From NCBI RefSeq assembly GCF_028368995.1, contig NZ_JAQNDL010000003.1:1280001-1344000 (forward strand): a stretch of 64,000 nucleotides of DNA. The letters are read 5' to 3'. The translations under genes were made by a program, and so were the position numbers. Source of the DNA: Nannocystis bainbridge (GTDB taxonomy: Bacteria; Myxococcota_A; Polyangia; Nannocystales; Nannocystaceae). Of the stretch, positions 6,390 to 63,043 are shown in pieces. Numbering within the stretch: the stretch's first letter is position 1; the number at the start of each line of letters is the position of its first letter. The notes below the pieces were generated by a model, which was given only the letters and a program-made list of their open reading frames with translations, had not been told where the DNA came from and did no database searches.

Positions 6390-7676
6390 TCAGAGCAACA
6401 GGCACGCCGCCGTCGGCACCTCGTGGTCGACCGTCAGCAGGCACTGCGCGCGCAGGCTGATCGCGATAAGCTCGCGCGCCTCCGCCTCGCCCGGCTCGCG
6501 CCCCGCGCCCGCCAGCGCCCGCGCCCGCGCCAGGTCGGCGAGCAACCGCGGCCGCGCCAGCCCCGTGAACTCGTCGGTGCCGCGGACCCCGCCCTCGCCC
6601 AGCCCGGCCGCCAGCAGCTCGGCCAGCACCGCCGCGTCGGCGCTGCGCAGCGGCTGGTCCCGGGCCCAGGCTGGCCGATCGGGCATGTCCGCGAGGACAC
6701 GTACGTGCGCCTCGACCACGTCGACGGCGGCCAGCATCTTGTCGTATTTCAGCGTCTCCGGCGTGTCGCTGGGCTGGTGGTAATGCGGGGAGCGGCCGGT
6801 CGAGACGAACAGCGAGGGGATCTCGCTACCAAAGAAGGCGCCGTGATCGCTGAACGCCTGCCGCCCGTGCGGCAGCTCTTCGACGAGACGCAGGTGCATC
6901 GCCCGCACGGGCAGCCGCGGGTCTTCGCGCAGCGCCGGGGCCGGCGGCCGCACGAAGGTCTCGCGGCCCATCACGTACAGCGGCGAGCGGTAGCCGTCCC
7001 ACAGGTCGCCGCCCATCAGGTCGAGGCAAACCACCGCGACCAATTGCTCGCGGGCGATCGTCGGCCGAGCCACGAAGTAGTCCGAGCCCATCGAAGGCGT
7101 GCGGTAGTCCGGCGGCTCCTCGGCGTCGAAGGCCGCGAGCAGCACGCTACGCGCCGGCGGATCGGCGGCCAGCCGCCTGACGACCGCGAGCGCGACCGCC
7201 ACGCCGCTGGCGTTGTCGTCGGCACCGGGATGCACCACCCCGTCGACCTCGCCGAGGTGATCGTAGTGGGCCGCCAGCACCACGTGCTCGCCAGCCCGCG
7301 CCGGGTCGCGCCCCGGCACCCGCGCCAGCACGTTGGCGCCGCGCGGCAGCGGCTGCTCGAAAGACCCTGTCTCTCCGGCCATCTCGAGCCCGTACGCCCG
7401 CACCCCGGCGACGATCGCCGCCCGCGCCGCCGCCCCGCCCGGGCTGCCGTTGTCGCGCCCGCCGAGCTCCGGCCCGGCCAGCAGCTCGACCCAGCAGCGC
7501 AGCGCCGCCGCCTCGTCGCGCTCGCCGGCGCATGAGGTCGGCGCCACGGCCCGTGGCACCGTCGCCCCGGTCACCCCCGCGTCGGCCACCGGCGCCACCG
7601 ACCCCGCCTCGCCCCGCTCCCCGCAGGCGAGCATCCAGCAGACCGCGAACAGGCGCCAGGGCGACATCCCGACCAT
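6390..7676 (-). CDS. M28 family metallopeptidase, lipoprotein
   Basis: Lipobox (MLAC) and motifs AHYDH, GADDNASG, DAEE, SDH, YHQPSDT. Confidence 0.9.
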   Translation of the reverse strand: MVGMSPWRLFAVCWMLACGERGEAGSVAPVADAGVTGATVPRAVAPTSCAGERDEAAALRCWVELLAGPELGGRDNGSPGGAAARAAIVAGVRAYGLEMAGETGSFEQPLPRGANVLARVPGRDPARAGEHVVLAAHYDHLGEVDGVVHPGADDNASGVAVALAVVRRLAADPPARSVLLAAFDAEEPPDYRTPSMGSDYFVARPTIAREQLVAVVCLDLMGGDLWDGYRSPLYVMGRETFVRPPAPALREDPRLPVRAMHLRLVEELPHGRQAFSDHGAFFGSEIPSLFVSTGRSPHYHQPSDTPETLKYDKMLAAVDVVEAHVRVLADMPDRPAWARDQPLRSADAAVLAELLAAGLGEGGVRGTDEFTGLARPRLLADLARARALAGAGREPGEAEARELIAISLRAQCLLTVDHEVPTAACLLL

Positions 7677-7934
7677 GTAGCACGGCGTCCGCCCCCGCCG
7701 GAGCGCGCGTTCGCCGGCACGACGCCCGACCCATCATCGGGGCCGGAAGACCGCAATCTCTCGCGTCTCCGCCTGTGCCCCTGAGCCGGCATCGGGCGAT
7801 TTGTGACCCCGTATACCAAAATTTCGGGTTGCTCGCGACCGCGCGGCTTCCTAGATTCCTCGTACCTCCGGCGAGGTCGGTATGATCAACCGCCATTTCA
7901 CCGCATATACACGTTTCACCGGCGAGGGCGCGCG

Positions 7935-8279
7935 ATGCTCGAAGTAGAGATCGACGTCGAGGTCGTGGCGCCGCCGCCGAACGGCGCGCCGCTCGATTTC
8001 CGCGAGCGACTGGTGCTGGCCCTCAAGACGACCGACGCCGCGGTGCTCGAGGCGGCGGAGGGGGCCTTCCGCGGCGTGTGGCCGAGCATCGACGCTTACA
8101 TCCTCGAGCGGCTGGCCGCCGACCTGCCGCCGGGGCTCGGCTGGGTCCTGGACTGCTGCGACCCCGCCGGCCTGCGCCAGGGCTACGAGGCCGGCGCGCG
8201 CGAGGTCTGGGCCATCCCGCTGGGCCACGGCCGGGCCATGGTGTTCGAGAGCCGCCAGGCCGCCGCCGCGCCGGCGTAG
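7935..8279 (+). CDS. Hypothetical protein (weak resemblance to ArdA C-terminal domain)
   Basis: ORF MLEVEIDV... preceded by GAGGG. The pattern 'FRGVWPSIDAY...LP..L.W...D' recalls ArdA. Confidence 0.55.
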   Translation: MLEVEIDVEVVAPPPNGAPLDFRERLVLALKTTDAAVLEAAEGAFRGVWPSIDAYILERLAADLPPGLGWVLDCCDPAGLRQGYEAGAREVWAIPLGHGRAMVFESRQAAAAPA

Positions 8280-8488
8280 CGGCCCTCGCTCGCGCTCGTA
8301 CGATTGCGCCGCCGTCGCGCGATTCATGCGACCTGGTGCGGCAATCGTGACACCCCGCATTGCCCGCGGCGCCCGTCCGCGATCGGCCGTCGGGACCCGG
8401 ACGGGCCCGCGGGCGAAACCGCGCAAACCCCGCACCCCGGGCCCTCTTGCCGATTTGGCCGGGATTCGGGACGCTGCTTGGGTCACCG

Positions 8489-9202
8489 GTGTCCTTCATC
8501 AACACCAAGGCCGGCGAGATCGGCGTCAAGGTCGTCTACTTCGGGCCCGCGCTGGCTGGCAAGTCGACGAACATTCGCACGATCCACCGCAAGACCCGGC
8601 CGGCCCTGCGCGGGCGGCTCGACGCGATCGCCGGCGACCTCGGGCCGATGCTGTCGTTCGACTTTGCCCCGGACACCTTGCCGCGCATCGACGATCGCTA
8701 CCGCGTGCGGCTGCACCTCGTCACCGTGCCGGGCCCGGTGCTGAGCCCCGTCTCGCGCAAGCTCGTGCTCAAGGGCGTCGACGCCGTCGTGTTCGTCGCC
8801 GACACCCAGGAGGAGGGCGGCGAGCTGGTGCGGTTCGAGGACAACGTCGAGTCGATGCAGCAGCTCCTGACCCTGCTCGACGACCTCGGGGTCGACAGCG
8901 CCTTCATGCCGATGGTGCTGCAGTACAACAAGCGTGACCTCGTCGAGGCCCCGACCCTGCGCCCGTTCGACTCGGCCCACGCCTCGCCGATCCCCCTGAC
9001 GACCCTGGCCGCCCTCGACGAGGCGATCAACCCCAACGGCCTGCCCACCATCGAGGCCGTCGCCACCGCGGGCATCGGCGTGATGGACTCCCTGCGCATC
9101 GTCGTCAAGGACCTGCTCGCCCCGCTGCGCGCCGAGTACGAGGCCAGCGGCGACCGTTACCCGATCGCCGCCGGCAGCTCCGGCGGCTGGCCCCGCGTCT
9201 GA
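8489..9202 (+). CDS. MglA-family small GTPase paralogue (degenerate switch motifs)
   Basis: (M)SFIN..EI.VKVVYFGP..AGKSTN, HL.TVPG, SRKL.LKGVD.VVFVAD and LQYNKRD are collinear with M. xanthus MglA. GTG start. Confidence 0.9.
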   Translation: MSFINTKAGEIGVKVVYFGPALAGKSTNIRTIHRKTRPALRGRLDAIAGDLGPMLSFDFAPDTLPRIDDRYRVRLHLVTVPGPVLSPVSRKLVLKGVDAVVFVADTQEEGGELVRFEDNVESMQQLLTLLDDLGVDSAFMPMVLQYNKRDLVEAPTLRPFDSAHASPIPLTTLAALDEAINPNGLPTIEAVATAGIGVMDSLRIVVKDLLAPLRAEYEASGDRYPIAAGSSGGWPRV

Positions 9203-9265
9203 CCTGCGCTTGTATCAGCGTGTCCCCGGGGACAGGTCATTCACCTGTCCCGCGGGACAGCTCGC

Positions 9266-9901
9266 TTACGCCTCTTTCGCCTCGTACGCGGCGATCAGGT
9301 GCTTGTAGTTCGGCACGTGCTCGACCATCAGCTTGGTGAAGCCGGACTCGTCGTTCCGCCAGTCCCGCATCAGCTCGGACGCGACCGCGAACCATGACAT
9401 CGGCTGCGCCCCGGCCATCGCCATGCGAGCGATCGCCCCGCCGGCCGAGCCGACGCACAGCGAGCCGGACGCGTCGGTCACCACGCGGACGTCGTAGCCG
9501 GCCTCGAGCGCCGACAGGACCACGAACGCGACGCACACGTCGGTCGTGATGCCGGCCACGATGAGCTGCTTGCGCCCGGTCTTCTTGACCGCCTTGACGA
9601 ACTCGGGGCTGTCCCACGCGTTGATCTCGCCCTCGCGGCGGATCACCTGGACCTTCGGCAGCCGCGCGCGCACCTCCGGCATCAGCGGCCCGTTCGGTCC
9701 ATCCTCCTTCGAGGTCGTGACCACTGTCGGCAGCTTGAACAGCTTCGCGGTGTCGGCAAGGGCCAGCACGTTGCGGTCGAACACGTCGGGGACGTGGTCG
9801 TGGACCAGCTGAAACAGGCCCGATTGGTGGTCGATGATCAGCAGCGCCGCCTCGTCCTTCGACAGGCGGTCGTACTTCAGCTTGGCGCGTTCGATATCCA
9901 T
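9266..9901 (-). CDS. YcaC-like isochorismatase-family hydrolase
   Basis: LLIIDHQ, GPNGPL, INAWD and AGITTDVCV (catalytic Cys). Confidence 0.92.
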   Translation of the reverse strand: MDIERAKLKYDRLSKDEAALLIIDHQSGLFQLVHDHVPDVFDRNVLALADTAKLFKLPTVVTTSKEDGPNGPLMPEVRARLPKVQVIRREGEINAWDSPEFVKAVKKTGRKQLIVAGITTDVCVAFVVLSALEAGYDVRVVTDASGSLCVGSAGGAIARMAMAGAQPMSWFAVASELMRDWRNDESGFTKLMVEHVPNYKHLIAAYEAKEA

Positions 9902-10302
9902 GATGTGTCCTTTGGAACAGGTGCGCAGGCGCGCGGATCACCCGTCGCCCGCGACGGTCACCATAGCCACCGCTGCCGGCGCGCGAGCCTCCGGCCCCGG
10001 CGCTGCTCCTGCCCTCTCACGGCCCGGTCGCCGGCCGCACCGGCCCTTTCGGCCGCGGCCGCCGCGGCGCGCCCGTGCCCATGGCCCTACGGCGACCTGT
10101 CCTTCGAGACATCTCATCCGCGCGCCCGCGCGGCGCGCTCCTCCACGCGATCACGCGCCCGATCGCGCCCCGGCGACATCGACCGCCGTCGGTCGTCACA
10201 TACGCCAGGCCCGCCTCGACCTGTCCTCGCGGACATATCACCGCGACCCTCGCCGGCGCCCGCGCAAGTCCCGTGGTCGCCGCGAGGACGACCGGTCGCC
10301 CG

Positions 10303-10755
10303 TCACGGCTCCTTCGCCGCCTCGTGGGTGCCTCGCCACCGTCGCACCGCCAGGTACACCAGCACGTACGACAGCCCCGCCAGCGTCGGGATCGCCACTG
10401 CCGCCCCGAGCGCGAACGGCCCAAGCATCGAAGTGAACAGCTCCCACCAGCCCGACCCGTCGAGCGCCCGCAGCTCGGCCCACGACGGCAGCGGGCGGCC
10501 CATCAGCGCCAGCCCGAGATAGAGCTCGCCGGCGTAGAACACCGCCCCGGTGACCGGGTTCACCACCGCCGTGCCGAGGTACGTCGCCGGGATGTTGAGC
10601 TTGAGCGGCGGCGCCAGGGCCAGCGCCAGCAGCATCCCCGCGAACGGGATCGGGATCAGCGACAGCCCGACCCCGAGCGCGAAGCCGCCGGCGATCCCCT
10701 GCGGCGTGCCGTTCAGGGCCAGGAGCCCCGCGACCCAGGTCCGGACCCGCCCCAC
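10303..10755 (-). CDS. DUF2062-family membrane protein
   Basis: TPQGIAGGFALG, IPIP and NPVT motifs with hydrophobic helices. Confidence 0.8.
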   Translation of the reverse strand: MGRVRTWVAGLLALNGTPQGIAGGFALGVGLSLIPIPFAGMLLALALAPPLKLNIPATYLGTAVVNPVTGAVFYAGELYLGLALMGRPLPSWAELRALDGSGWWELFTSMLGPFALGAAVAIPTLAGLSYVLVYLAVRRWRGTHEAAKEP

Positions 10756-11153
10756 TACTTCTTGTCCCTCTCGTCCTTCTCGAGCTCCGCGTTCGCGGCC
10801 TCCACACCGGCCTTGGCGGCGCCCTTGATCTCGTTGAACTCGGCCTTGCCCTTCTCGAGGGCATCACGCGCGCCCTGCTCGACCTTGTCGGCGCCGCGCT
10901 GGATGTGCCGCGCCGCATCCTCGGCGCCGTCCTCGATCTTCTCGCCGGCCACCCTCGCCCCCGACTCGACCACGCCGACCGCCTTCTCGGCCCCCGAGCG
11001 GACCTTGTGCCCGGCCTCCTTGGCCGCGTCGGCCGCCGCGTCGATGGCCTCCTTCGTCTCCGCGGCCGCGCGCTTGCTCGTCGGCGAGTCGCCGCAGCCG
11101 GCCAAGAGCCCCGAGAGCACCACCGCGAGCGCTGAAATCCCGTGTTTGCGCAT
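10755..11153 (-). CDS. Lipoprotein with Ala/Lys/Glu-rich helical (LEA-like) repeats
   Basis: Lipobox LAGC followed by amphipathic A/K/E repeats. The stop overlaps the start of the DUF2062 gene. Confidence 0.75.
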   Translation of the reverse strand: MRKHGISALAVVLSGLLAGCGDSPTSKRAAAETKEAIDAAADAAKEAGHKVRSGAEKAVGVVESGARVAGEKIEDGAEDAARHIQRGADKVEQGARDALEKGKAEFNEIKGAAKAGVEAANAELEKDERDKK

Positions 11154-11213
11154 GCTTTCTCCTTCGAACCGGCCCAAGCGTGATCGCGAACGGCGAACTC
11201 GACAAGCGCGCTT

Positions 11214-11239
11214 GCATATCTACTCGGGAGTAGATATGC
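11214..11239. promoter_or_regulatory. Perfect 12-bp inverted repeat, probable TetR operator in a divergent promoter
   Basis: GCATATCTACTC-GG-GAGTAGATATGC lies 10 bp upstream of the tetR ATG. Confidence 0.75.
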
Positions 11240-11248
11240 TCCCCGAGC

Positions 11249-11851: not shown

Positions 11852-11855
11852 GCAA

Positions 11856-13025
<1,170 letters not shown>

Positions 13026-13114
13026 GCTCGCCGCGCCCGCGGTCGTCGCCCACATGTCCCCGAGGACATGTCATCGCCCCGGATCGGAGATGACATGTCT
13101 CTCGGGACATCCCG

Positions 13115-13672: not shown

Positions 13673-13795
13673 GCTTCCACCATAGCCGCCGGCTCGCGGC
13701 TCCGCGCCGCCGGTCCGATCGCGGTACGAGCCTCGCGCGGATTCGCCCGGCTCGATCCGCGCCACGGCCTCGCGCGTCGCGGGCATCATGCGCCC

Positions 13796-14173: not shown

Positions 14174-14355
14174 GCCGCGGCTGGGCCAATCGCAACACAT
14201 GTCCTATCGGCCATGTCTTACGAATCGCCGAGCGCCGTGGACCCCGGCGCGTCGTGCCACCGCCGGCGGCGACCGTCCTCGTCCATAGTCGCGCGATTTT
14301 TGTCACGCCTCCTCGCGGTCGGTTCCTCACCGAACGGTGCTCTAACCGCACCTGC

Positions 14356-15453: not shown

Positions 15454-15476
15454 GCTGCCGTCGCCCATCCTGGCGC

Positions 15477-15536
15477 GCTGTGGTGATTCGCCACAGCTCG
15501 CCAATCACCCCAGAGGCCGCCGCTGTGGTGATTCGC
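15477..15536 (+). terminator. Hairpin downstream of the OYE gene with a partial second copy
   Basis: GCTGTGG-TGATTCG-CCACAGC at 15477-15497. GCTGTGGTGATTCGC recurs at 15522-15536. No U-tract. Confidence 0.35.
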
Positions 15537-15676
15537 AACGCCCCGCTCTCCTCTCCAGCTGCGCCCCGATCTATCACCCCCCTCTGAATTTTCCCGCGTG
15601 ACAATGCCGCCGCGCCGCGCCGATCGCCGCCTGCGACGGCGCGAATAAGTCGCCTCCCGGGGCGTCACCGGAGGCC

Positions 15677-16393: not shown

Positions 16394-16577
16394 TCGAAGG
16401 CGGAGCATCGCTGCGATCGCCGGCGCCGATCGCCGGCACATGTCTCGAGAGACATGTTGTGTCAATTCATCGCTGTCCGCTCGCCGATGCGCATGCCCGC
16501 GCGTGGCATCGCGCCTGCGCGCCCGCGAGCGCTCGCCGTACTTGTGCGCCGGCGGGTCGCTCCCGTATAGCCTGATC

Positions 16578-18171: not shown

Positions 18172-18452
18172 CCTGCGCTCGCGGACATGCCCAATCGGAC
18201 ATGTCCACGCAGACACATCACACCTCCGCGCCGCAGGTGCGCGCGACGGCTCGATCCGCCGCCGCGATCGAGGTCATCCTTCGCGTCTTCCGCCGTCGAC
18301 TCGCTTCGAGCGGGCAATGACCGCCCGACCGTTCGCCTCGTTCCTGCTGCCCCGAGGACGTCGCACCTGAGGCCGCTCGCGGGTCCGGGTCGGCGATCGC
18401 GCAATGATTTGTCGCCCGCCGCCTCGAACCGCGCGGGGGCATCTGCTACAGC

Positions 18453-19127: not shown

Positions 19128-19209
19128 CAGCGCCGCCGAAGATCGACCAGTCTGTTCCGTCAGGTCCGAAGGGACATGCCCCGAGAGACATGTCCCAAGA
19201 CCGTCCGCC

Positions 19210-20787
19210 TCACGCCAGCCCGTAGAGCGAATCGACCAGCGCGTCGAGGGCCGGCGCGACTGACGGGTCGCCCGCGCGCCAGCGGTCGACCAGCCTGACG
19301 ATCTCCGCCGCCACCTCCCGGTCCCAGTCCTCCGGGGCCGGCACCGGCAGCCCGCGCAGCTGGCGGGGACCGATCCGCAGGTACCCGCGGGCCAGGCGGT
19401 CGCCGCCGTGCACGTGTTGATAATAGTCGTCGATCACCCGGCTGTGCACGATCGCCGCCAGCACCCGCAGGTCGTCGGGCCACCAGCAGATCGTCGTCGA
19501 CTTGCCGGCCAGCACCTCGCCGCGGGCGTCGATCGTCGCCTCGATCGAGCGCGTCATCCCGGCCACGATCAGCTTCGGCGTGCGCGCCTGGGCCAGCCGG
19601 CGCGGCGGCAGGCGCTCGGGCGCCGCGATCACCGGGCGCAGGAAGCTGCGGCCCAGGTAGCGCAGCGGCGTCTTGCCCCACAGCTCGGCGCAGCGGTCGA
19701 TCGTCCCGCTGTTGACCACGCGCAGCCCTGCTTCGCCCTCCACGATCAGCTCCGCGATCGCGTAGGCCTCGCCGACGGTCGCCGCGCCCCACACCTGCGC
19801 CAGCTCGCCGAGCGGCCGGCCGACCGCGCGCATGTGGGCCACGCAGGCCGCGTCGCCGCGGCCCGAGATCGGCCACGGCCCCTGGGACAGACCTGTCCCG
19901 AGGGACATCTCCTCACATTCGTCCGTGCCGCGCCGCAGCGCCACCGGCGTCGCCTCGCCCGGGCCGCGGCGGGCCACGAACGCCAGCGGGTAGACCCCGG
20001 CCGCGAACGGCAGCGCCTCGCTCAGGTCGTACAGCGCCACCAGCCGGGCCTCGCGCGTCAGCAGCCGGCGGGTCGCCGCCGCGTAGTCGGCCGACGCCAG
20101 CTTGTTCGGCACCACCAGCGCCACGTAGCCGCCCGGCGCGCACAGGCGCAGGCCGAGCTCGATGAACACGCAGAACAGGTCCCAGTTGCCGCGGGCCGCC
20201 TCGTAGCAGCCGGCGCAGTGGCGGCGCAGCGCCGCGTGGTGGCGCGTCATCGCCTCCGCGTCGACGAACGGCGGGTTGCCGAGCACCGCGTCGAAGCCCC
20301 CCGCCGCCAGCGCCGCCGGGAACTCCTCCGCCCACACGAACGGCTGGCCCGCCGCCGCCGGCGCCCCGGCCCCCAGCAGCGCGTTGCCGACCTTGATGTT
20401 TTCGGACATGTCCTCGGGGACAGCTCCCACCAAGCCCGCCACCGCCGCGCGCGCCAGCAGGGCCGCCGCCGGGTCGACGTCGACCCCGAAGATCGCCGCC
20501 TGCAGCAGCGCCAGCCGCTCGCCCGCGCTACGCGCTTCACCTGTCTCTCGGGCCATCTCCTCGTCGCGGGCCAGCAGCGCCGCCGCGGCCGCGATCAAGA
20601 ACGCCCCCGCGCCACACGCCGGGTCGACCACCCGCACCGTCGCCCCCGCCGGCGCCGCCGCCAACACGCGCCCGAGCGCGTCGTCGACCAGCCGGCGCAC
20701 CAGCGGCGCCGGCGTGTAGAACACCCCGTCGCGCTTGCGGCGGGCCGGATCGAGCCCGCGTTCGTGCGCCCGCGCGGCCTCGTTCAT
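19210..20787 (-). CDS. Orphan N6-adenine DNA methyltransferase (gamma class, TaqI/Eco57I-like)
   Basis: GVFYTP, motif I VDPACGAGAFL, motif IV GNPPF and a C-terminal target-recognition-like region. No nuclease domain or neighbouring nuclease. Confidence 0.88.
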   Translation of the reverse strand: MNEAARAHERGLDPARRKRDGVFYTPAPLVRRLVDDALGRVLAAAPAGATVRVVDPACGAGAFLIAAAAALLARDEEMARETGEARSAGERLALLQAAIFGVDVDPAAALLARAAVAGLVGAVPEDMSENIKVGNALLGAGAPAAAGQPFVWAEEFPAALAAGGFDAVLGNPPFVDAEAMTRHHAALRRHCAGCYEAARGNWDLFCVFIELGLRLCAPGGYVALVVPNKLASADYAAATRRLLTREARLVALYDLSEALPFAAGVYPLAFVARRGPGEATPVALRRGTDECEEMSLGTGLSQGPWPISGRGDAACVAHMRAVGRPLGELAQVWGAATVGEAYAIAELIVEGEAGLRVVNSGTIDRCAELWGKTPLRYLGRSFLRPVIAAPERLPPRRLAQARTPKLIVAGMTRSIEATIDARGEVLAGKSTTICWWPDDLRVLAAIVHSRVIDDYYQHVHGGDRLARGYLRIGPRQLRGLPVPAPEDWDREVAAEIVRLVDRWRAGDPSVAPALDALVDSLYGLA

Positions 20788-21050
20788 GCCGGCGATCCCG
20801 GGCCCGCGGCGATCTCCAGCGCGCCCGCCGCGGCGCCCCTGGACGGCGACCACGGCCCGCTCTCCGCCCTCGCCAGGCCCGCCCGCGGCCAGCCCGGCCG
20901 GGCCACGAGCGCCTCGCCGCGGACCTTCGCGGCCCGTCCGGCCCGCGGCTCACGCGACCTGGCGTCGGCGCACACCGGCGCAGTTTACCCACGCCCGCCC
21001 GTCTGTGCTACCACTCCCGCGCGGACGGCTCGCCACCTGTCCGGAGAGAC

Positions 21051-21788
21051 ATGTCCCAACAAACAGCCTCGCCCGAACGGCTCGCGCCGGTGATCGCCCC
21101 CTCGCTGCTCAGCGCCGACTTCGCCCGCCTCGGCGAGGAGGCCGTCGCGCTCGACCGGGCCGGCGCCGACTGGCTGCACGTCGACGTCATGGACGGCCGG
21201 TTCGTCCCCAACATCACGATCGGCCCGCTGGTGGTCCAGGCCCTGCGCCCGCACACCGCGCGCGTGCTCGACTGTCACTTGATGATCGAGGAGCCCGAGC
21301 GCTACGTCGAGGCGTTCGCCGACGCCGGGGCCGACATCATCACCGTCCACCTCGAGGCCTGCCGCCACCTCCACCGCAACCTCCAGCAGATCCGCGACCT
21401 CAAGCGCAAATCTGGCGGGCGGGTGCTGGCCGGCGTCAGCCTCAACCCGCACACCCCCGCCTCGGCCCTGGTCCACGTGCTCGACCTGTGCGACCTCGTC
21501 CTCGTCATGAGCGTCAACCCCGGCTTCGGCGGCCAGCAGTTCATCCCCGCCGTGCGGCCCAAGATCCGCGAGCTGCGGGCCATGATCACCGCCGCCGGCC
21601 TGCCGACCCGGATCGAGGTCGACGGCGGCGTGACCGTCGACACCATCGCCGACATCGCGGCGGACGGCGCCGACGCCTTCGTGTCCGGCACCGGCGTCCT
21701 GCGCAGCCGGCAGTTCGGTCGGGACTACGCCGCCGCCATCGCGGCCCTTCGGGGAACCGCCGATGCCGCCATGATCTGGCGCACCTGA
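21051..21788 (+). CDS. rpe: Ribulose-phosphate 3-epimerase
   Basis: IAPSLLSADF, HVDVMDG.FVPN, DCHLM, MSVNPGFGGQ and EVDGG motifs. Confidence 0.97.
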   Translation: MSQQTASPERLAPVIAPSLLSADFARLGEEAVALDRAGADWLHVDVMDGRFVPNITIGPLVVQALRPHTARVLDCHLMIEEPERYVEAFADAGADIITVHLEACRHLHRNLQQIRDLKRKSGGRVLAGVSLNPHTPASALVHVLDLCDLVLVMSVNPGFGGQQFIPAVRPKIRELRAMITAAGLPTRIEVDGGVTVDTIADIAADGADAFVSGTGVLRSRQFGRDYAAAIAALRGTADAAMIWRT

Positions 21789-22967: not shown

Positions 22968-22980
22968 GCCGGCCCGCGAG

Positions 22981-23320
22981 CGACCTGCCCCAAAGGACAT
23001 CCGCCCAGCGCGCCGCCGGCTGTCTAGTGGGACATGTCGAAAAGGACATGCCCTTCGGGACACCCGGTCTGGCTGCCCCGCGGACACGTCCTTGAAGGCA
23101 CGGCCTTCGGGTCGCCGAACCGGCGTGACCTCGGGAGCATGTCCCTGAGGCCATGCCCTTCGGGTCACCCCACCCGGCCTGTCCCGTGGATATGTCCCCG
23201 AAGACATGCCCTTCAGGTCACCCCACCGCCATGGCTCGTGGACATGTCCTTGAAGCCATGCCCTCCAGGTCACCCGATCGCCAGGGCACCCGGTCACCGG
23301 GCGCGACCTGTCCCTCAAGC
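22981..23320. repeat. Intergenic cluster of tandem TGYC-N6-GACA units
   Basis: For example TGTC-tagtgg-GACA-TGTC-gaaaag-GACA-TGCC-cttcgg-GACA at 23021-23062, with further degenerate runs to about 23320. Confidence 0.85.
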
Positions 23321-24440: not shown

Positions 24441-24467
24441 GATGTCCTCCACGACATGTCCTTATGT

Positions 24468-25731: not shown

Positions 25732-26943
25732 TCAATTCGCCGGCACCGGCGCGGGCGCGGGCGCCCTCGCGGCCGCGGAACGCCGGTCTGCCAGCGCCTT
25801 GCGGGCCCCGACGGCCTCGCCGATCAGCACCGTCGCCGCGCAGCTGGCCGCCAGGCTCGAGCGGGCCCGCTCGACCGCCTTGCGCACGCAGCCCGCCAGC
25901 CTGGGATCGGCCCCCTCGACCCGGACCTGCCCGGCCCGCCCGCCGCGGTAGCTCCAGACCACCGCCACCGCCGCCCCGGCCGGCGCGCAGGCGTCGAGCG
26001 CCGCCTTGTGGGCCGCCACGCCCTCGAGCGCCTCCGCCAGCGCCAGCGGGTCGGTCTGCGGCATCCGGCACGCCAGCTCGTGCACCGTCAGGCCCGCCAT
26101 CGTCAGCGTCGGCGCCCGGCTCGTCAGCGCCACCTCGACCTTGCGCCCGCGCGACCGCTTCAGCTGGGCCGCCAGCTCGCAGCCGTCGCCGTCGCCGCCC
26201 TCGCACGCGCGCGCGAACAGGGCCGTCGCCTGGCCGACGTCGACCGCCGTGCCGACCCCGCGCAGCGCCGCCAGGCCCTGGCGCAGGCACCCCGCCGGCT
26301 GGCCGCCCGCGCACCCGCGCGCGAACAGCTCGACCGCGCGCGCGTTGTCGCCGGGCCGCCCGCCCGCCTCGTCGAAGATCAGGATGCCCGCGTTGAAGCA
26401 GCCGGTCGCGTGCCCGAGCCCGCACGCCTGCTCGAACGCCGCCGCCGCGCGGCCCGGGTCGCGCGTCGCCCCGCGACCTGTCTCGAAGAACAGCCCCGCC
26501 GTGAAGCACGCGAACGCGTCCTGCTTGGCGCACGCCAGCTCGAACATCGCCAGCGCGCGCGGCGGATCGGCCGGCACGGCGGTGCCTTCGGCCAGCATCG
26601 TCCCGACCGTCGCGCACGCCTCGGCGAAGCCGAGCCGGCACGCGCGGTCGTACAAGCCGACGGCCCGCGGCGGATCTTTCACCGCTCCGCCGACCCCGCC
26701 GCGCAGCACCCCGGCGAGGTTGGAGCAGCCGACGGCATGTCCGAGAGAACATGACCGATCGAGCAGGCGCAGCGCCTCGTCGGGGCGCTGCAGGCCGAGC
26801 GCCAGCATGCCCTCGGTGTTGCACTCGGCCGCCTCGCACTGCCGCGGCGGCTCGGCCGGCGCCGCGGTCTCCTGCGCGGCCGGGCAAGCAGCGACGAGCC
26901 ACAGGCCCGCGACCAGGGGCGAGAGACACCCGTGCGTGCGCAT
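25732..26943 (-). CDS. Sel1-like repeat lipoprotein
   Basis: Repeated A..LF..AC..G....C..LG motifs. Lipobox VAAC. Start MRTHG at 26943. Confidence 0.85.
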   Translation of the reverse strand: MRTHGCLSPLVAGLWLVAACPAAQETAAPAEPPRQCEAAECNTEGMLALGLQRPDEALRLLDRSCSLGHAVGCSNLAGVLRGGVGGAVKDPPRAVGLYDRACRLGFAEACATVGTMLAEGTAVPADPPRALAMFELACAKQDAFACFTAGLFFETGRGATRDPGRAAAAFEQACGLGHATGCFNAGILIFDEAGGRPGDNARAVELFARGCAGGQPAGCLRQGLAALRGVGTAVDVGQATALFARACEGGDGDGCELAAQLKRSRGRKVEVALTSRAPTLTMAGLTVHELACRMPQTDPLALAEALEGVAAHKAALDACAPAGAAVAVVWSYRGGRAGQVRVEGADPRLAGCVRKAVERARSSLAASCAATVLIGEAVGARKALADRRSAAARAPAPAPVPAN

Positions 26944-27294: not shown

Positions 27295-27741
27295 CACTTC
27301 ATCGCCGCGAATCCCCGAGGCGCTCCGCCGCGCTTCGCCTTCCGCTGCGTCACCGCGCTTGCGGGCCTATCACCGCCGTCTCACGGTCGAGCCCGGTGGC
27401 TCGCGCGCTCGCATCGATGCCCGCACCATCGCCGTCGATCCGCGATTCGCTCGCCGCCTGCACACCGCATGTCTCTTCAGACATGTCCCTTTCGTCATGT
27501 CTGGACTGTCACACATCCCGGGCCCGGGTGTGTGCGAGCGCCACGTCGGCGTCGGGGTTCGTTCGCCCGGGCGCGCCGGCGCCTCGGGCCCCCTAACCTG
27601 CGGAATCCGCCCGAATTTCGCCTGGCATCGCGGCAGGCGCGCCTTTCATCGTCGACATGATCGAGCGGGACGCCGCCTGGCAAAGCTGCGTATCCTCCAG
27701 GGGACGCGCGGACCTTCGGGTCGCGCGCCAGGAGCCTCGAC

Positions 27742-35767: not shown

Positions 35768-35960
35768 CGGCGCTCGCGCTCGCTGGCGGGCCTCGGGTCT
35801 GTCCCCAGAGACAGGCTCGGTTCCTGTCTCCGGAGACAGCTCGGACGGCCGTCCGCCGGGGCCCGGGCCCGCGCGCGGTCGCCCGCGTCAATGGCGCACT
35901 GCAGTACCGTGTTTTCTCGACTATTGAGGGATTTCCCTGGCCGAGGTAGCAATCTTGCGC

Positions 35961-42580: not shown

Positions 42581-42710
42581 CCGCCCGCGCGACCGCCGTC
42601 TCTACCTGTCCTTTCGGCCAGGCCCAGCGTGACCGCCGTGCGCCCTCCGGGGCCCGTGCGGTCACCTGTCTCTTCGGCCATACGCGGGCCCACCCGGCGG
42701 AGGTGACGTC

Positions 42711-44735: not shown

Positions 44736-44749
44736 CCCGCCGGGCAGCC

Positions 44750-44910
44750 TCACGTCTTTCGTGAAGGGCTGTCCGTGAGGACATGGCCGGAGAGACACCC
44801 GAGGATGTCCTCTCGATCATGTCCTCAAAGCCATGCATGACCTTCCCGGCGCCGGTACTGCCCGTCCCGAGCGACACAATCTGGCCCTCCAAACATGTCC
44901 TCGAGGACAG
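44750..44910. repeat. Cluster of TGTC-N6-GACA units at a convergent junction
   Basis: Perfect copies at 44770 and 44896, with phased degenerate copies between them. Confidence 0.8.
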
Positions 44911-46229: not shown

Positions 46230-46405
46230 CTCTCCTGTCTTTGCAGACAGCCTCCTCCGAGGTCCCCGCGACCCTGACGCCCGCGGCCCGCCCCCCGGCG
46301 AACATGTCCGCGAGGACAGCCTCACCGGTCCCTGCGTGAATCCCCGTCCCGCATCCCACCTGTCCCCGAGGACATCCGCCTCCGTGACCTGTCCCCGAGG
46401 ACATC
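46230..46405. repeat. Cluster of four perfect TGTC-N6-GACA units
   Basis: Copies at 46236, 46305, 46361 and 46390. Confidence 0.85.
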
Positions 46406-46429
46406 CGGCGGCGCTCGACCTCGCTGGGC

Positions 46430-47047: not shown

Positions 47048-47644
47048 GATTTCCAACCATACCGCAGTCGAGCTCGCCGCCACCACCCGCCCGACTCGCG
47101 GGTTCGCGCGTGCGCTCGACGAAGCGTCGGGCGAGCCCGACCTGCGAGGGCGTGAGCTCGGCCTCACGCGCCGTCGCCGACGCCCGCACCGACGAGCTTG
47201 CGCGCCCGCCCGTGCGGCGGACGTGCCGTCACGCGCCGCCCTCGCCGCGCGCGTCCCGCTCGCGCCCGGCTCGGCCAGGCGCTGCGAGCCCGACCTCTGG
47301 CAGCGCCTCGACCGAGCTGGGGCCGGCCAGCTCGCTAGCCAGGCCGCAGGCTCGCCCGCGTCGGAGATCCCCCGCTCGAGCTCGCCTTGAGGTCGGCCCG
47401 CCGCGATTGTGCCAGTGCCCCCAGCGGCTGACCTTTCGGACATCTCGCGCTCCCTTCGCCGCTGCGCGTCATGACCGACCTCAGCCATGTACCTGCATGT
47501 GACCCGGCGAATACGAACTGTGGTTCGCCGGAGCCGCTGCGACAGCGGCACGCGTGTATGCCACACACGGTGCGGCAGGCGCTGATATTGCGGCGCGGCC
47601 CCGGAGCGAGGACACTGTCACTCGGCATGCACGATCCCGGAGGC

Positions 47645-49168: not shown

Positions 49169-49237
49169 GCATGTCCCGAAGGACATGCTGCGCCGGGCCG
49201 CCTTGACGACATGTCCCTCGGGACATGTCTGCCGAAT

Positions 49238-52267: not shown

Positions 52268-52406
52268 ACCAACGCGCCGGCTCTCGCTTGAGCCTCGGAT
52301 GTCCCTTTCGCCATGTGCGAAGGGACATCCGAGACACGACCCGGATCCAATCCATCGAGATGCCCCCGAGGACAGGTCCACGCGGACGTTTCAATCAACG
52401 CCCGCG

Positions 52407-56600: not shown

Positions 56601-57431
56601 ATGAGCGACGCCACCCCGCCGACGATCATCGACGCCTGGATGCAGCACCCGACCCCGCGGTTCATGGCGCAGCCGTGGCTCGACTCGCTCAAGCGCTGGA
56701 CCGGCGACGATTTCGCCGGCCCGTGGCCGCTCGAGGCGACGCTGACGAGCATGGACCAGGGGGGCGTCGGCTTCGGCCTCATCAGCGCGTGGGTCGGGCC
56801 CATGGGCCCGCTCGTCAGCAACGACGAGGTCGCCGCATGGGTCGCGCAGGCGCCCTCGCGGCTGGCGGGCATCGGCTCCGTCGACATCACCCGGCCGATG
56901 GACGCCGTGCGCGAGCTGCGTCGCTGCGTCAAGCAGCTCGGGTTCCGCGGCGTGCGCGTGCTGCCGTGGCTGTGGGAGCTGCCGCCGACGCACCCGCGGT
57001 TCTATCCGCTGTACGCCGAGTGCTGCGAGCTCGGCGTCCCGTTCTGCACCCAGGTCGGCCACACCGGCCCGCTGAAGCCGTCCGAGGTCGGCAGACCGAT
57101 CCCCTACATCGACCAGATCGCCCTCGATTTCCCCGAGCTCGTGATCGTCGGCGGCCACATCGGCTACCCGTGGACCGAGGAGATGGTGGCCGTCTGCACC
57201 AAGCACCGGAATGTCTATATCGACACCTCCGCCTATACCATCAAGCGCTACCCGCCGACGCTCGTGCAGTACCTCGCCGCGCACGGCCGCAAGAAGGTGC
57301 TGTTCGGCACCAACTGGCCGATGATCGCCCCGGCCCACGCGCTCGCGGGCGTCGATGCGCTCGGCCTCGACGCCGAGGCGCGCGCGCTGTTCCTCGCCGG
57401 CAACGCCCGGCGTGTGTTCAAGCTGGCCTGA
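56601..57431 (+). CDS. Amidohydrolase_2 family protein
   Basis: DAWMQH, GFRGVR..PW, GGHIGYPW, NVYIDTSAY and LFGTNWP motifs. Confidence 0.9.
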   Translation: MSDATPPTIIDAWMQHPTPRFMAQPWLDSLKRWTGDDFAGPWPLEATLTSMDQGGVGFGLISAWVGPMGPLVSNDEVAAWVAQAPSRLAGIGSVDITRPMDAVRELRRCVKQLGFRGVRVLPWLWELPPTHPRFYPLYAECCELGVPFCTQVGHTGPLKPSEVGRPIPYIDQIALDFPELVIVGGHIGYPWTEEMVAVCTKHRNVYIDTSAYTIKRYPPTLVQYLAAHGRKKVLFGTNWPMIAPAHALAGVDALGLDAEARALFLAGNARRVFKLA

Positions 57432-60386: not shown

Positions 60387-60682
60387 GCCGCCGAGCGATC
60401 GCTGCCCGATTCGCGGATCGCTGACCTGCAGCGCGAATCCGCGAACGCCACCGCATGGCGAGAATCCGACGACATGTCCCGTAGGACATGTTTTTTTTAA
60501 AAAAATAAGAATGCCATCGTTGACGAAGCACGCGGGCGTCCCTCGCATGCGCGGGCCCGGGGCCCCATCACCGCCTTCTGCGCGGCGTTCTCATACGTGC
60601 GAACCTCACCCGCACGTTTGCGACGGCGGCCTCGCGGGTGCGCGCGCGCGTCGAGGTAAAACGGAGCCCGACAGGTGGGTTC

Positions 60683-62035
60683 ATGAACACGCGCATTCGC
60701 TCTGCTTCGCTCCCCTCCCGCTCTTCCGTCCTCACGCTCTCATGGGCCCTGACGATCGGCCTGCCGCTCGCGGGGGCGAGCTGCGGTGGCGGCGGCGGCC
60801 CTGCTGCGAGCAGCGACACTGACGGCGTCGGAACCGAGACCACCGCTGCGAGCGACGTCACCGCCAGCGAGCCGACGACATCCCCTTCGAGCGCCGGCCC
60901 CACGACCTCCTCCACCACCGGCGACAGTGGCGGTCCCACGACCTCCTCCTCGACCCGCGGAGACGCCCCGGACCTCACGACCTCCTCCTCGACCGGCGAT
61001 GACCTGCCCGCGAGCTACCGCCACGGCGACCTCGTGACCATCGAGGGCGATTTCGGCAGCAACGACGTCACCCGGACCTTCCTCGGCGGCGCTGACGGCA
61101 AGATCGAGTCGCTCTCGCCCGGGCAGACCATGGAGAGCGGCGACGGTTGGTCGTTCAACGATCTCGGCGGCCCCACCAGCGTCGAGATCGACCCCGAGCG
61201 CGGCAGGGTCCTTTTTACGCCCGAGGACAGCGATCACTACAACGCCACCCGGCGCTTCGATCCGGGCTTCCCCATCGCCGAGCAGCGGCACTTTTATAAG
61301 GCCCACTACGTGCGCAACGTGATGCTCCTGGACGGCGCCCCGTACGTCAAGACCTACCAGTGGAAGCACGAGCGCGTGAACTGGGAGAACACCGTCGTCG
61401 ACGGCGACTGCGAGATCAAGATCCACAACCAGATCGGCGGCGCCGGCGTGCTCACCTTCGTCAACCGCTCGGCCAGCGACAAGTCCACCTATTACGGCGG
61501 ACAGGCCGGCGACAGCAACGGCGGCTGGGCGCTGCTGGAGATCCTCGTCTTCACCGGCACCGAGGGGCAGGAGGACGGCAAGCTGATCACCCGCGTGCAC
61601 AAGGACGGCAAGACGATCATCAGCGAGAACATGCAGACCGAGCGGATCTACGCTGACCCGTCCATGCGCCTGCGTCACTTCATCGAGCAGAACTACTTCG
61701 GCAATTTCGGCCAGGCCGAGGACGGTGTCGACAATCCGCTGCCCAAGCCGGACGTGCGCGAGCTGTGGTCGGACGACAGCCGCGTCCTCGTCGGCAACAC
61801 CGCCGAGACTGGCTGGAGGCGCGTCGAGCTGCGCGACAGCGTCGACCTCCAGAGCGCCACGCTGCGCGAGGTCCAGGAGTGGATCGGCTGGGACGGCGCC
61901 ATCGACCTGCGCCTCAACGCCGACGGCCTCCCCCCGGGCGAGCACGACCTGTTCCTGGTCGTCATCGACGGCGTCGACCCCGAGGGCTGGGACATCGTGA
62001 CTCACGCCATGCCCATCCGCGTCGGCGTCGATTGA
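60683..62035 (+). CDS. Secreted lipoprotein with Thr/Ser linker and unknown beta-rich domain
   Basis: GASC lipobox, T/S/G repeats and an aromatic-rich globular domain. Confidence 0.75.
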   Translation: MNTRIRSASLPSRSSVLTLSWALTIGLPLAGASCGGGGGPAASSDTDGVGTETTAASDVTASEPTTSPSSAGPTTSSTTGDSGGPTTSSSTRGDAPDLTTSSSTGDDLPASYRHGDLVTIEGDFGSNDVTRTFLGGADGKIESLSPGQTMESGDGWSFNDLGGPTSVEIDPERGRVLFTPEDSDHYNATRRFDPGFPIAEQRHFYKAHYVRNVMLLDGAPYVKTYQWKHERVNWENTVVDGDCEIKIHNQIGGAGVLTFVNRSASDKSTYYGGQAGDSNGGWALLEILVFTGTEGQEDGKLITRVHKDGKTIISENMQTERIYADPSMRLRHFIEQNYFGNFGQAEDGVDNPLPKPDVRELWSDDSRVLVGNTAETGWRRVELRDSVDLQSATLREVQEWIGWDGAIDLRLNADGLPPGEHDLFLVVIDGVDPEGWDIVTHAMPIRVGVD

Positions 62036-62110
62036 GGCGCGGCGAAAACCGGGCACGCGCCGAAGCGCCGGCACGTGGTCCCCTTTCGTTTGTCGCGGAG
62101 GCGACGCGTA

Positions 62111-62653
62111 TCAATCGACGCGTGCAGCGGCCACCGCGACGAGGGCCGAATACGGGGCGAGCGCCGACCCCAGGGCGGCGTCGAGGGCGTCGTTGCGAAA
62201 CTCCGCGTCGGCGGCGGACCGGATGTCCGTCGTGAAGAAGGCTTGCCCCGTGCGCAAGCCCGTGTGACTCGCGGCGACGAAGGCATCGCCGGGCCGCGCG
62301 TCGTGGGCCCCTGCGGCGAGCTCCTCGAGCACCCCGCCGCGCTCGCGGTAGCAACGCGCGCCGCCGGTGCTTGCAACGTGGGCCACGTCGCCGAGCAGGA
62401 GCACGACGCTCGCGCCCGAACAATAGGGCGGCGGTGGGGTCGCGGCTGCGAGCGTCGCGGCTGCGCCGTCGCTCACGCGAGCCAGGCGTGCAAGGGCGCC
62501 CTTGATGCCCTCGAGCGACGGGGTGGCGAGATTGCCCTGCACCGCGACCAACGCGACCACGCGCCCCTCCTCGACCGACCGCGCCTCCACGCTGGACGCC
62601 GCGTCGGTGTCTGCGCGCCGTCCGTGAACGAGGGCCCCGAACTGTGTTGCCAT
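62111..62653 (-). CDS. Hypothetical protein
   Basis: ORF MATQFGAL... with plausible composition. No motif recognised. Confidence 0.5.
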   Translation of the reverse strand: MATQFGALVHGRRADTDAASSVEARSVEEGRVVALVAVQGNLATPSLEGIKGALARLARVSDGAAATLAAATPPPPYCSGASVVLLLGDVAHVASTGGARCYRERGGVLEELAAGAHDARPGDAFVAASHTGLRTGQAFFTTDIRSAADAEFRNDALDAALGSALAPYSALVAVAAARVD

Positions 62654-63043
62654 GGGTGCCAGGGTAGCGGATCGCCGCTGAGAGGAAAGCGAAACGAGTG
62701 GGCCGCGCGCGATGAAGTTCGCAAGCGCGCCCGCGGGGTCTCGCCCGCCGTGTCGGCCGCGAGCTCGCGGCCTCGCGCAGGACCAGAAGGGGCGTCGCCT
62801 CGAGCCGCCGTGGCCGATCGACATGAACCAAAGGACAGACGCCCGCCGGGGTCGCTCGCGAGCTCCGCCTCGCGCAGGGCGAGCACGAGCAGCGCCGCGG
62901 GCGGCGATGCTGACCCGAAGGACCGGAGCCGCATCTCCTGCCGCGAGCTGCAGCGAAATGGCGCCACATGTCCCTTCAGACAGCTCTCAAGCATGCCCCG
63001 AGCGTCGCGCCGCTCCCCTGCGCACCGGCCTCGCCGGTCCCGC

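Follow-up and report, generated by a model that had tools for sequence, protein, structure and literature searches.

Repetitive extragenic palindromic (REP) elements are hairpins of 20-40 nt that are conserved throughout and tied to REP-associated tyrosine transposases (RAYTs). Known uptake sequences, the DNA uptake sequences (DUS) of Neisseria and the uptake signal sequences (USS) of Pasteurellaceae, are asymmetric 9-12-mers, which form no lattice and whose coding copies sit in tolerant frames or regions. The dRS3 repeats of the Neisseria intergenic mosaic elements (NIME) have fixed inverted arms, a variable spacer and hundreds of copies that flank local repeat units, and they are a target of IS110-like or phage integrases. 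Here we analysed a palindromic word, TGTC-N6-GACA, which is dispersed over a 64,000-nucleotide stretch of the Nannocystis bainbridge genome (RefSeq assembly GCF_028368995.1, contig NZ_JAQNDL010000003.1, positions 1,280,001 to 1,344,000; hereafter the window), and compared it with these and two further systems. One is the operator box of the LuxR-type regulators CviR and CsuR of Chromobacterium, whose ideal form is given as CTGNCC-N4-GGNCAG and which is represented by the csuI operator CTGTCCGATAGGACAG (PMC12114271). The other is TRIT ('Tuberculosis Rho-independent terminator') of Mycobacterium, a lineage-restricted, conserved and bidirectional palindrome located tightly at gene ends, for which a binding factor was suspected by its authors from the high sequence conservation (PMC3152330). 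Another source describes 147 TRIT copies, with about 50 nt extracted per copy, which were covariance-modelled and are a likely RNase III substrate; it also lists REP among the 3'-terminus-associated elements whose mechanism is unexplained, and reports that inverted DUS or USS pairs double as terminators (PMC13714241).

As judged from its letters, the Nannocystis word is an instance of the CviR/CsuR LuxR-type box. Both share a two-fold layout over 16 bp and agree in their conserved letters, and the csuI operator fits the word. This link is new here, and so is the named candidate reader described below; we found no description of the motif in Nannocystis in the open-access literature. The initial annotation had not recognised the word, which holds for parS- and matS-like sites by their distribution and does not hold for the published LuxR-type box. 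TRIT is the nearest gene-end analogue, though it is a longer structured RNA. In contrast to TRIT, the Nannocystis box measures 14-16 bp, has a free spacer and about 3700 copies, shows no covariation, forms lattices and includes selected coding copies. The REP elements of enterobacteria and pseudomonads and their mosaic arrays (bacterial interspersed mosaic elements, BIMEs) resemble the box as short palindromic repeats that occur in hundreds at 3' ends and in convergent gaps and are often clustered. Unlike them, the box is fixed only in its arms, is also found in coding DNA (1358 of 3663 copies) and comes from a genome in which the search for RAYT gave no match. Like DUS and USS, the box is over-represented throughout the genome, in coding as well as in non-coding DNA.

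The window (C2:1280001-1344000 of the assembly, which we call G000) belongs to a genome of 11.05 Mb in five contigs, with 71.5% G+C and a completeness of 90.5%. It holds 30 copies of TGTC-N6-GACA, whereas in 100 dinucleotide-preserving shuffles 0.66 copies occurred on average and never more than 4. This agrees with the earlier estimate of less than one chance copy per window. All of the 28 perfect copies listed by the initial annotation were present, and two (24443 and 57212) had been missed. When up to one mismatch to TGTCC-N4-GGACA was allowed, 37 sites were found in the window against 1.65 expected; of the 13 near-matches listed before, 9906, 14200, 26738, 42607 and 52361 passed at this stringency and the other eight failed. 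Genome-wide, the claim of a fixed 6-bp spacer was borne out: N6 was counted 3663 times, and the other spacers from N0 to N19 only 29-175 times each. The N20 spacer, with 984 copies, is an echo of the 14-bp period. Because copies abut, the junction GACA-N0-TGTC (GACATGTC, 2237 copies) and the spaced repeat TGTC-N10-TGTC (1576 copies) were also frequent. The word is therefore real and specific.

All 4-mer arms with spacers of 0-12 were ranked genome-wide, and the seven top spaced palindromes were pieces of one word (including ATGT-N8-ACAT, TGTC-N6-GACA, GTCC-N4-GGAC, CTGT-N8-ACAG and CATG-N10-CATG). The full word is (A/C)TGTCC-N4-GGACA(T/G), which is two-fold symmetric over 14-16 bp and has the spacer consensus yyrr. 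ATGTCC-N4-GGACAT was found in 652 copies and CTGTCC-N4-GGACAG in 413, compared with about one for control spacers. The arm G and its partner C in TG..CA are almost invariant. The most tolerant arm position is the third letter, the T of TGTCC (mainly T to C), and this is the position of the N in the published CviR box; the fifth letter allows C to T. The spacer is variable, with the commonest 6-mer in only 107 of the 3663 copies, the flanks differ between copies too, and the half-sites decay independently of each other. No pattern relative to origin or terminus was seen, the density being even on all five contigs with 33-130 sites per full 250-kb bin. A chromosome site of the parS, matS, Noc or SlmA type was rejected, as the regional distribution of such sites was absent.

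The placement of the word relative to genes was analysed with a purpose-written codon-usage caller, a crude one with approximate starts, which gave 8162 genes covering 84.7% of the sequence. On this map, 2260 of the sites were intergenic, 1358 (37%) were fully coding and 45 straddled a boundary. The density per kb was highest in convergent gaps (3.13), followed by tandem gaps (1.25), divergent gaps (0.46) and coding DNA (0.145). Within convergent gaps it was 4.4-8.8 per kb at up to 100 nt from stops and 1.65 at 300-400 nt. Past the stops of tandem gaps it was 2.6-4.8 in the first 25 nt (2.2-4.8 in the first 30 nt) and 0.75 at 300-400 nt. In divergent gaps, only 0-0.14 per kb was found within 30 nt of starts. 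The word thus stands behind genes and is avoided before them. Sites that keep 9 or more of the 10 arm letters were present in 51% of the convergent gaps of 40-100 nt and in 64% of those of 100-300 nt, compared with 0-0.6% for the backwards-read control. A site followed 40% of the genes with typical codon usage and 18% of the least typical fifth.

The coding copies are also in excess. In well-scored genes 1272 copies were found, against 89 +/- 7.7 after within-gene synonymous codon shuffling (14-fold), whereas the N0, N3 and N12 spacers in coding DNA matched the shuffle expectation. Frame 2 held 652 copies, frame 1 held 547 and frame 0 held 100; frame 2, read as nnT GTC ... GAC Ann, encodes V-x-x-D and forces rare NNT codons. 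The coding copies cluster in disordered repeats of large proteins, yet 729 genes hold just one. Five such repeat regions contain 9-15 boxes each (C2:2066054-2070511, C3:712627-717846, C5:658301-661411, C2:1216680-1218890 and C3:585193-587040). The box-rich large proteins include a TPR protein, a Ser/Thr-kinase-like protein and a GTPase-like protein, among others, and their boxes encode x-V-P/L/S-x-D-S/I/M with periods of 21, 36, 42, 48 or 60 nt. In these repeats the conserved part seems to be the DNA word rather than the peptide.

The window was mapped to the syntenic DNA of four congeners (G010, G005, G007 and G001), with aligned identities of about 89% in coding and about 80% in intergenic DNA. 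In the 28 aligned intergenic site-by-species pairs, 19 boxes were perfect, the other 9 had lost no more than 2 of their 10 letters and none was worse. At 80% identity, all eight outer letters should survive in only about 17% of cases. The motif itself may have anchored the BLAST alignments of gaps, and a further 76 pairs did not align. All of the 12 aligned coding pairs were perfect. By position, the identity was 82-100% in the arms, 61-71% in the central spacer and 25-45% in flanks beyond 5 nt. The box is hence conserved beyond its surroundings. Box-bearing gaps stayed box-bearing in the relatives, and gaps without a perfect box were also without one in every aligned relative, except for 47057-47626.

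Among 73 genomes of the family from 17 genera, the exact 16-mer was found in at least 11 copies in 23 genomes and in 0-1 copies in the other 50. The Nannocystaceae guessed by the initial annotation are thus correct as the family, within which the motif was confined to three genera: all 11 Nannocystis genomes (genus g1, G000 included), all five of genus g2 (22-34 copies) and all seven of genus g4 (11-102 copies). The counts of G013 are inflated, as nine of its 20 examined sites were copies of one repeated gene. Six complete Nannocystis genomes of 11-13 Mb contain 389-652 copies. A search for two abutting boxes in 185,579 species, each represented by a single genome, returned 49 loci, most of them in Nannocystis, with about 17 Mesorhizobium records and three singletons. 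In Mesorhizobium (L076, L102, L107 and others; G031-G033), 49-105 copies of TGTCC-TGCC/GGCA-GGACA were observed, often paired about 124 bp apart. The fixed spacer and fixed pair distance mark this repeat as an ordinary copied element, distinct from the box; it looks like a miniature inverted-repeat transposable element (MITE) or an element of the RIME type (Rhizobium intergenic mosaic element) that shares the arms by coincidence.

The sites of the sister genome G011 (about 60% G+C) are placed in another way. About 11 of its 20 examined sites lie in AT-rich promoter-like gaps and have the extended form AACATGTCC-N4-GGACATGTT, and at least one stands between a promoter-like hexamer pair and a ribosome-binding site. 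These boxes (L124-L139) adjoin genes for secreted or envelope proteins (DUF4215, the core of an extracellular contractile injection system, FG-GAP, CAP, OmpA, TonB_C and a fatty-acid desaturase) and a hydrolase gene too. The neighbour genes may represent an ancestral regulon. Their homologues in G000 are mostly without upstream boxes. An SOS box was rejected, as the genes beside the G011 sites are not SOS genes.

The word could be recognised as DNA or act as RNA. The latter explanation assumes a gene-end hairpin with a stem of 5-9 bp and a 4-nt loop, comparable to TRIT in mycobacteria or REP in enterobacteria. The hairpin would terminate mRNAs, protect their 3' ends or be cleaved there, possibly together with a stem-reading protein or RNase. 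This explanation fits boxes that lie directly past stop codons and in convergent gaps. TRIT is likewise palindromic, sequence-conserved and narrowly placed at gene ends (PMC3152330), and is a likely RNase III substrate (PMC13714241). Three results of our own also count for a hairpin and against a site read as DNA. Single boxes folded with -8.2 to -16.8 kcal/mol (z +0.1 to -4.9) and pairs, as long hairpins, with -33 to -37 kcal/mol (z -3.5 to -4.9). Canonical hairpin-plus-T terminators were not enriched in 20 kb of the window (7 versus 4.3 +/- 2.2 in shuffles), which leaves room for an RNA role. Compensatory doubles were 2-3 times above independence for several transitions, and this excess could come from subfamilies or from some pairing constraint.

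The other observations argue against pairing. When the site context was oriented by the upstream gene, the base frequencies at each position equalled their mirrored complement, and the sites lacked the U-tract of a canonical intrinsic terminator (T downstream 3.4-3.6 of 15 nt, A upstream 3.3-3.4). No Watson-Crick covariation was detected for the inner pairs 4-9 (ratio 1.04) and 5-8 (0.99) or for the flanking pairs -2/+15 (0.95) and -3/+16 (1.04), and the -1/+14 pair alone reached 1.22. Single-arm variants outnumbered compensatory doubles, and at the invariant G/C pair of TG..CA the doubles were essentially zero (0, 3 and 0). In tandem gaps, which have one sense strand, 311 G-U-type variants and 264 C-A mismatch-type variants were counted, a difference within the general left/right asymmetry and no wobble bias; the wobble excess at one position was shared by transversions and is therefore not about pairing. 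The predicted stem is poorer in G+C than the genome, and abutting units would leave zero linker between hairpins. Box pairs showed no inverted-spacer relation (4-8% versus 4.4% background), by which long BIME-like inverted pairs were rejected. The 14-fold coding enrichment does not suit a hairpin, only 8 of 102 tRNA genes are followed within 120 nt by a site that keeps 9 or more of the 10 letters, and no Rfam family was found at threshold in the window. A search for RNA runs that cover 8400-18300 gave none; six runs contained 5-7% of the words of this part, in contigs only. With no RNA-pairing signature, the evidence points to a word that behaves as protein-read double-stranded DNA rather than as a hairpin, and we consider the RNA explanation unlikely.

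The boxes also keep a 14-bp register. Perfect pairs were counted genome-wide 144 times at 14 bp, 88 times at 28, 61 times at 42 and 36 times at 56. Neighbours that keep 8 or more of the 10 arm letters accompanied 17.3% of the perfect sites at +14, 9.7% at +28, 6.6% at +42, 3.6% at +56 and 1.6% at +70, against a background of 0.35%, and any other offset was found at no more than 1.4% of the sites. Between neighbours 14 or 28 bp apart, the spacers were unrelated (2.2-2.4 of 6 letters identical versus 2.33 background), so the register is not the leftover of recent slippage. A register without sequence identity is what side-by-side dimer binding would demand. Neighbours 29-150 bp apart shared their spacer in direct orientation in 25-41% of cases versus 4.7%, which means that longer local duplications occur. 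In the window, abutting copies are real (23021/23035, and with near boxes 18188/18202 and 23035/23049), but they are a minority and not as frequent as first described. The idea of a cooperatively bound protein site is favoured by the symmetry, the independent half-site decay, the missing covariation and the 14-bp lattice; the word is not wholly unfamiliar, though, as it matches the CviR/CsuR box.

The LuxR-type helix-turn-helix (HTH) proteins of G000 were screened as possible readers. Eleven GerE-type matches were found in ten frames, one of which is a sigma factor, and this leaves nine LuxR-HTH proteins. The candidate (L173/P0001) is a solo protein of 179 aa encoded outside the window at C3:1036254-1036793, with its GerE HTH at residues 114-166 and no Pfam family match in the N-terminus. 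Full-length orthologues (E <= 1e-38) were present in 22 of the 23 motif-rich genomes and in none of the 50 motif-poor ones. By genus, they were found in 10/11 genomes of g1, 5/5 of g2 and 7/7 of g4; the genome without it, G006, is an 84%-complete bin. In the 50 motif-poor genomes the best matches were 1.2e-14 and 6.7e-13, and the remainder matched the HTH only. The distributions of the other eight proteins do not follow the motif. The FHA-HTH protein L168 is present in 73/73 genomes and does not fit the motif. The tandem-HTH protein L172 and the HTH-TPR protein L167 occur in 3/11 Nannocystis genomes each. The response regulators L165, L166, L169 and L170 are equally similar in motif-poor and motif-rich genera, and a further one, L171, was found in 6/11 genomes of g1, 1/7 of g4 and also in three motif-poor genera. 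L172 (C2:1197176-1198474) has 432 aa with two LuxR-type HTH in tandem and a relative in G029.

In a large protein collection, the homologues of the candidate are entered as LuxR-type regulators from Nannocystis, Nannocystaceae or Myxococcales bins. Across 39 homologues (44-97% identical overall) the HTH block P117-V166 was nearly invariant and the N-terminus varied. Among solved structures, the profile of the candidate matched the NarL DNA-binding domain, StyR, DesR and EL222. Its structural model (mean predicted local distance difference test 74) was closest to EL222 and VqmA, which are sensors with PAS plus LuxR-HTH. The candidate is a small protein, about 180-190 aa long, that combines a PAS-like domain with a LuxR-HTH. 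The candidate gene is convergent to gyrB and downstream of a gene for an extracytoplasmic function (ECF) sigma factor, both in G000 (L184, C3:1034757-1038293) and in G053 of g2 (L195). The sigma pairing was also seen in G009, and G054 differs. A site of G011 that is 1.6 kb from the candidate orthologue lies inside an AstE/AspA-type gene, and this linkage is not conserved.

We propose that a dimeric HTH protein would read the 14-16 bp box as double-stranded DNA. Each monomer would read one arm, TG-n-C-Y, with the arm centres 9 bp apart, which is about one helical turn. As boxes abut without a gap, neighbouring dimers could line up in a 14-bp lattice, which would reach about five units at most. 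The reader would be the PAS-like plus LuxR-HTH candidate. A few dozen boxes, as found in each of the two sister genera, would have been multiplied to thousands in Nannocystis, and selection would keep them mainly 0-100 nt past stop codons and between convergent genes, while promoters and 5' leaders would exclude them. The bound arrays might mark the ends of transcription units. They would then be a roadblock or an insulator that guards against read-through and convergent transcription; alternatively, they might form a topological barrier. The box itself is probably a real, selected, protein-read DNA site. That the LuxR-type protein named here reads it is a tentative assignment, which we take as possible rather than probable, and the suggested boundary function at gene ends is more doubtful still. 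Taken as one package, the dimer-read box, its LuxR-type reader and the gene-end boundary fall a little short of what we would call probable.

Several observations weigh against this proposal. The CviR box is known from a handful of promoter-proximal activator sites that are read by a receptor for acyl-homoserine lactones (AHLs), whereas Nannocystis has thousands of sites, mostly after genes and few near starts, which form 14-bp lattices. The candidate carries a small PAS-like domain instead of a receptor domain of this kind, and the AHL-binding domain PF03472 gave borderline matches in only 2/31 genomes, both in frames of more than 1100 aa, and none in the candidate. No box was present within 1.5 kb of the candidate gene in G000, that is, no sign of autoregulation. 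A search for readers based on autoregulation gave 92 small genes with a box at most 120 nt upstream; among the 20 scanned there was one MarR, and the others were not DNA-binding. The three motif-rich genera may form one clade, in which case the co-occurrence of protein and motif could represent a single event of shared ancestry. The screen took in LuxR-HTH proteins only, and other dimeric families of the CRP/FNR, PadR or LacI types could read such a palindrome; a PadR-type operator has the form ATGT-N8-ACAT. The 14-fold coding enrichment is awkward, being left unexplained by a roadblock at gene ends, and the scarcity of sites behind tRNA genes tells against a boundary role. These last two points fit a pure terminator poorly, so explanations by an architectural protein, an RNA element or molecular drive have to be kept in view.

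The first of these, which we consider distinctly unlikely, assumes that the box is bound by a nucleoid-associated or architectural protein which is abundant and has a chromosome-wide role in packing or supercoil domains, for which gene ends are the least harmful places. It agrees with the even density on the five contigs, with coding sites well above expectation, with the exclusion of sites from promoters and leaders, and with the lattices and the HTH of the candidate, which is frozen across its family. A model of free space does not predict, however, that the density within convergent gaps drops with the distance from the stop, and about half of the few dozen sites in the examined sister-genus genome are promoter-like, as for an ordinary regulator.

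An uptake-signal-like word, which the initial annotation also considered, or a self-propagating one could have been spread by molecular drive (biased uptake, recombination or repair), with the copies at gene ends only secondarily useful. Thousands of evenly spread copies are consistent with this, as are the 37% in coding DNA, which are accommodated by rare NNT codons and favoured frames at 14-fold above the synonymous shuffle, and the clustering in disordered repeats. In Neisseria, DUS pairs act as terminators (PMC13714241). ComEC and DprA are present in G000, as in most bacteria, and are uninformative because the control search matched in 10-11 of 14 genomes. The box is nevertheless a bipartite palindrome with a free spacer, and neither its strict 14-bp lattice nor its proximity to stops is predicted by drive, which makes this explanation very unlikely.

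Least probable, and close to dismissal in our view, is the REP-like element of the initial annotation, i.e. relics of a REP- or MITE-like selfish or recombinogenic element that are tolerated at 3' ends without reader or function: the 3' and intergenic location, the spacers often shared by neighbours 29-150 bp apart (25-41% versus 4.7%) and the copy number varying between relatives within one gap speak for it, but the RAYT transposase (Y1 transposase, PF01797) had 0 matches in G000 where the positive control was matched in 6/14 genomes, spacers and flanks differ between copies, lattice units share no spacers, positions and arms are conserved across species while flanks diverge, none of the three IS110 copies stands in a box, and it is the Mesorhizobium look-alike, not the Nannocystis box, that has the fixed spacer and pair spacing expected of a copied element. 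An integration target of the IS110/dRS3 type was rejected as well, as 0/3 IS110 copies of G000 abut a box.

For the proposed dimer-bound box, a bolder history can be drawn, which we regard as quite improbable. A PAS-like/LuxR-HTH regulator that first had a few dozen promoter operators, as the sister genera still do, would have been co-opted. Lattices of its dimers on thousands of boxes downstream of genes would now halt transcription, insulate against it or serve as anchors for the relief of supercoils; the candidate gene is a neighbour of gyrB in two genera. In a genome with 71% G+C and few classical terminators, such lattices would correspond to the factor-bound terminators known as mTERF and Reb1, but in a bacterium. 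Since the candidate carries a sensor domain, read-through at thousands of gene ends would then be signal-adjustable.

How genes end is a question of interest in high-G+C bacteria, which have few classical terminators. In Nannocystis, more than half of the convergent gene pairs with gaps of 40-300 nt are separated by one sequence-specific word. If the LuxR-type reader is true, this would be a rare case in which an ordinary operator has grown into a structural signal of the whole genome, and the HTH frozen across the family would make a clean system for the evolutionary lock-in of site and reader, as well as a directly testable entry to gene-end biology in myxobacteria. The boxes also break the assemblies of Nannocystis metagenome bins, and they would matter when the large biosynthetic gene clusters of Nannocystis are engineered.

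The boxes of the window are collected in Table 1. The clearest cases are the box pairs that nearly fill short convergent gaps (9221/9246 and 49172/49212) and the boxes 30-50 nt past stops (13055, 16441, 35800 and 44770).

Table 1. Boxes in the window, with their setting and their state in the four syntenic relatives. Near boxes have one mismatch where this is given; TRF, Tandem Repeats Finder.
Position	Setting	State in relatives and remarks
6686..6699	box inside Peptidase_M28 gene (6390-7676, minus)	identical in 4/4 syntenic relatives
9221..9259	two boxes (9221, 9246) filling the 63-nt convergent gap that separates the gene ends at 9202 (+) and 9266 (-)	orthologous gap with 1 perfect box in each of 4 relatives; aligned 9221 site keeps its arms in 3/4, spacer and flanks diverged
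9906..9919	near box (1 mismatch), close upstream of the start of isochorismatase-family gene (9266-9901, minus)	
10098..10111	box in 401-nt gap 9902-10302	perfect in 2/4 relatives
10222..10235	box 68 nt past stop of minus-strand DUF2062 gene (10303-10755)	
13055..13109	two boxes (13055, 13096), the first 30 nt past the stop of AurF-like gene (13025)	orthologous gap with 2 perfect boxes in 3/4 relatives and 2 one-mismatch boxes in G010; both aligned sites perfect in 2/4; pair can fold as long hairpin
14200..14213	near box (1 mismatch) 27 nt past stop at 14173	
16441..16454	box 48 nt past stop at 16393, in 109-nt tandem gap	
18188..18215	two-unit 14-bp lattice (near 18188, perfect 18202) after small open reading frame ending at 18171	TRF period 14, 18180-18215
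19163..19176	near box in convergent gap 19128-19209	TRF 14-bp array 19169-19200
19894..19907	box inside Eco57I-type N6 methylase gene (19210-20853, minus)	arms in 4/4 relatives, spacer varies
20409..20422	second box in Eco57I-type methylase gene	arms in 4/4 relatives
21038..21051	box 38 nt upstream of ribulose-phosphate 3-epimerase gene, in divergent gap	TGCCC variant in 4/4 relatives
22986..23206	array in 384-nt convergent gap 22968-23351: perfect 23021, 23035, 23193; near 22986, 23049, 23140	14-bp lattice over 23021-23062 within 52/105-bp local repeats; orthologous gaps with 1 perfect box in 3/4
24443..24456	box overlapping both the start of the minus gene at 23352-24452 and the stop region of the one at 24468-25670	perfect in 2/4 relatives
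26738..26751	near box (1 mismatch) inside Sel1-repeat gene	
27470..27483	box in 777-nt divergent gap, 258 nt upstream of gene for 2084 aa	TRF period 14, 27468-27502
35800..35838	two boxes (35800, 35825), the first 33 nt past stop at 35767	two boxes in 3/4 relatives, one in the fourth; arms 8/8, spacer 3-6/6
42607..42620	near box (1 mismatch) 27 nt past stop at 42580	
44770..44909	two boxes (44770, 44896) in 242-nt convergent gap 44736-44977	orthologous gaps with 3-9 units that keep at least 7/8 outer TGTC/GACA arm positions
46236..46403	four boxes (46236, 46305, 46361, 46390) in gap 45911-46429, past stop of minus gene 46430-47056	46361 and 46390 lie within a 29-bp local duplication
47429..47442	near box (1 mismatch) in divergent gap 47057-47626	
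49172..49225	two boxes (49172, 49212) filling 69-nt convergent gap 49169-49237, the first starting 4 nt past stop codon	single-box hairpins of -16.7 and -16.8 kcal/mol
52314..52374	two near boxes (52314, 52361) in convergent gap 52268-52406	
57212..57225	TGTC-N6-GACA inside gene, inner C/G absent: TGTCTATATCGACA	probably a chance copy
60475..60488	box 89 nt past stop at 60386	T8/A7 run directly after
62969..62982	box in gap 62591-63043, 61 nt past stop of minus gene 63044-63700	

Some further features were observed. In the 71% G+C genome, the T8 followed by A7 beside the box at 60475-60510 makes it the sole copy of the window that resembles a classical bidirectional terminator. Elsewhere in G000, about 27 tRNA genes are gathered in 2.6 kb (C2:2556665-2559233). 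The gene 27742-33996 (2084 aa) contains a repeat of 10.7 units of 276 bp with 87% identity at 28196-31160, and the 8 kb made up by this gene and the next one hold zero boxes. A tandem array of 16.8 copies of a 36-bp unit, with nested periods of 67, 105 and 177 bp, lies at 37819-38405 in a gene-free gap of 1.3 kb and is unrelated to the box. The methylase gene at 19210-20853 (minus) encodes an Eco57I/MmeI-type N6 adenine methylase of 547 aa; it stands between the housekeeping genes for a glutathione S-transferase (GST) and ribulose-phosphate epimerase, and is syntenic in the four congeners.

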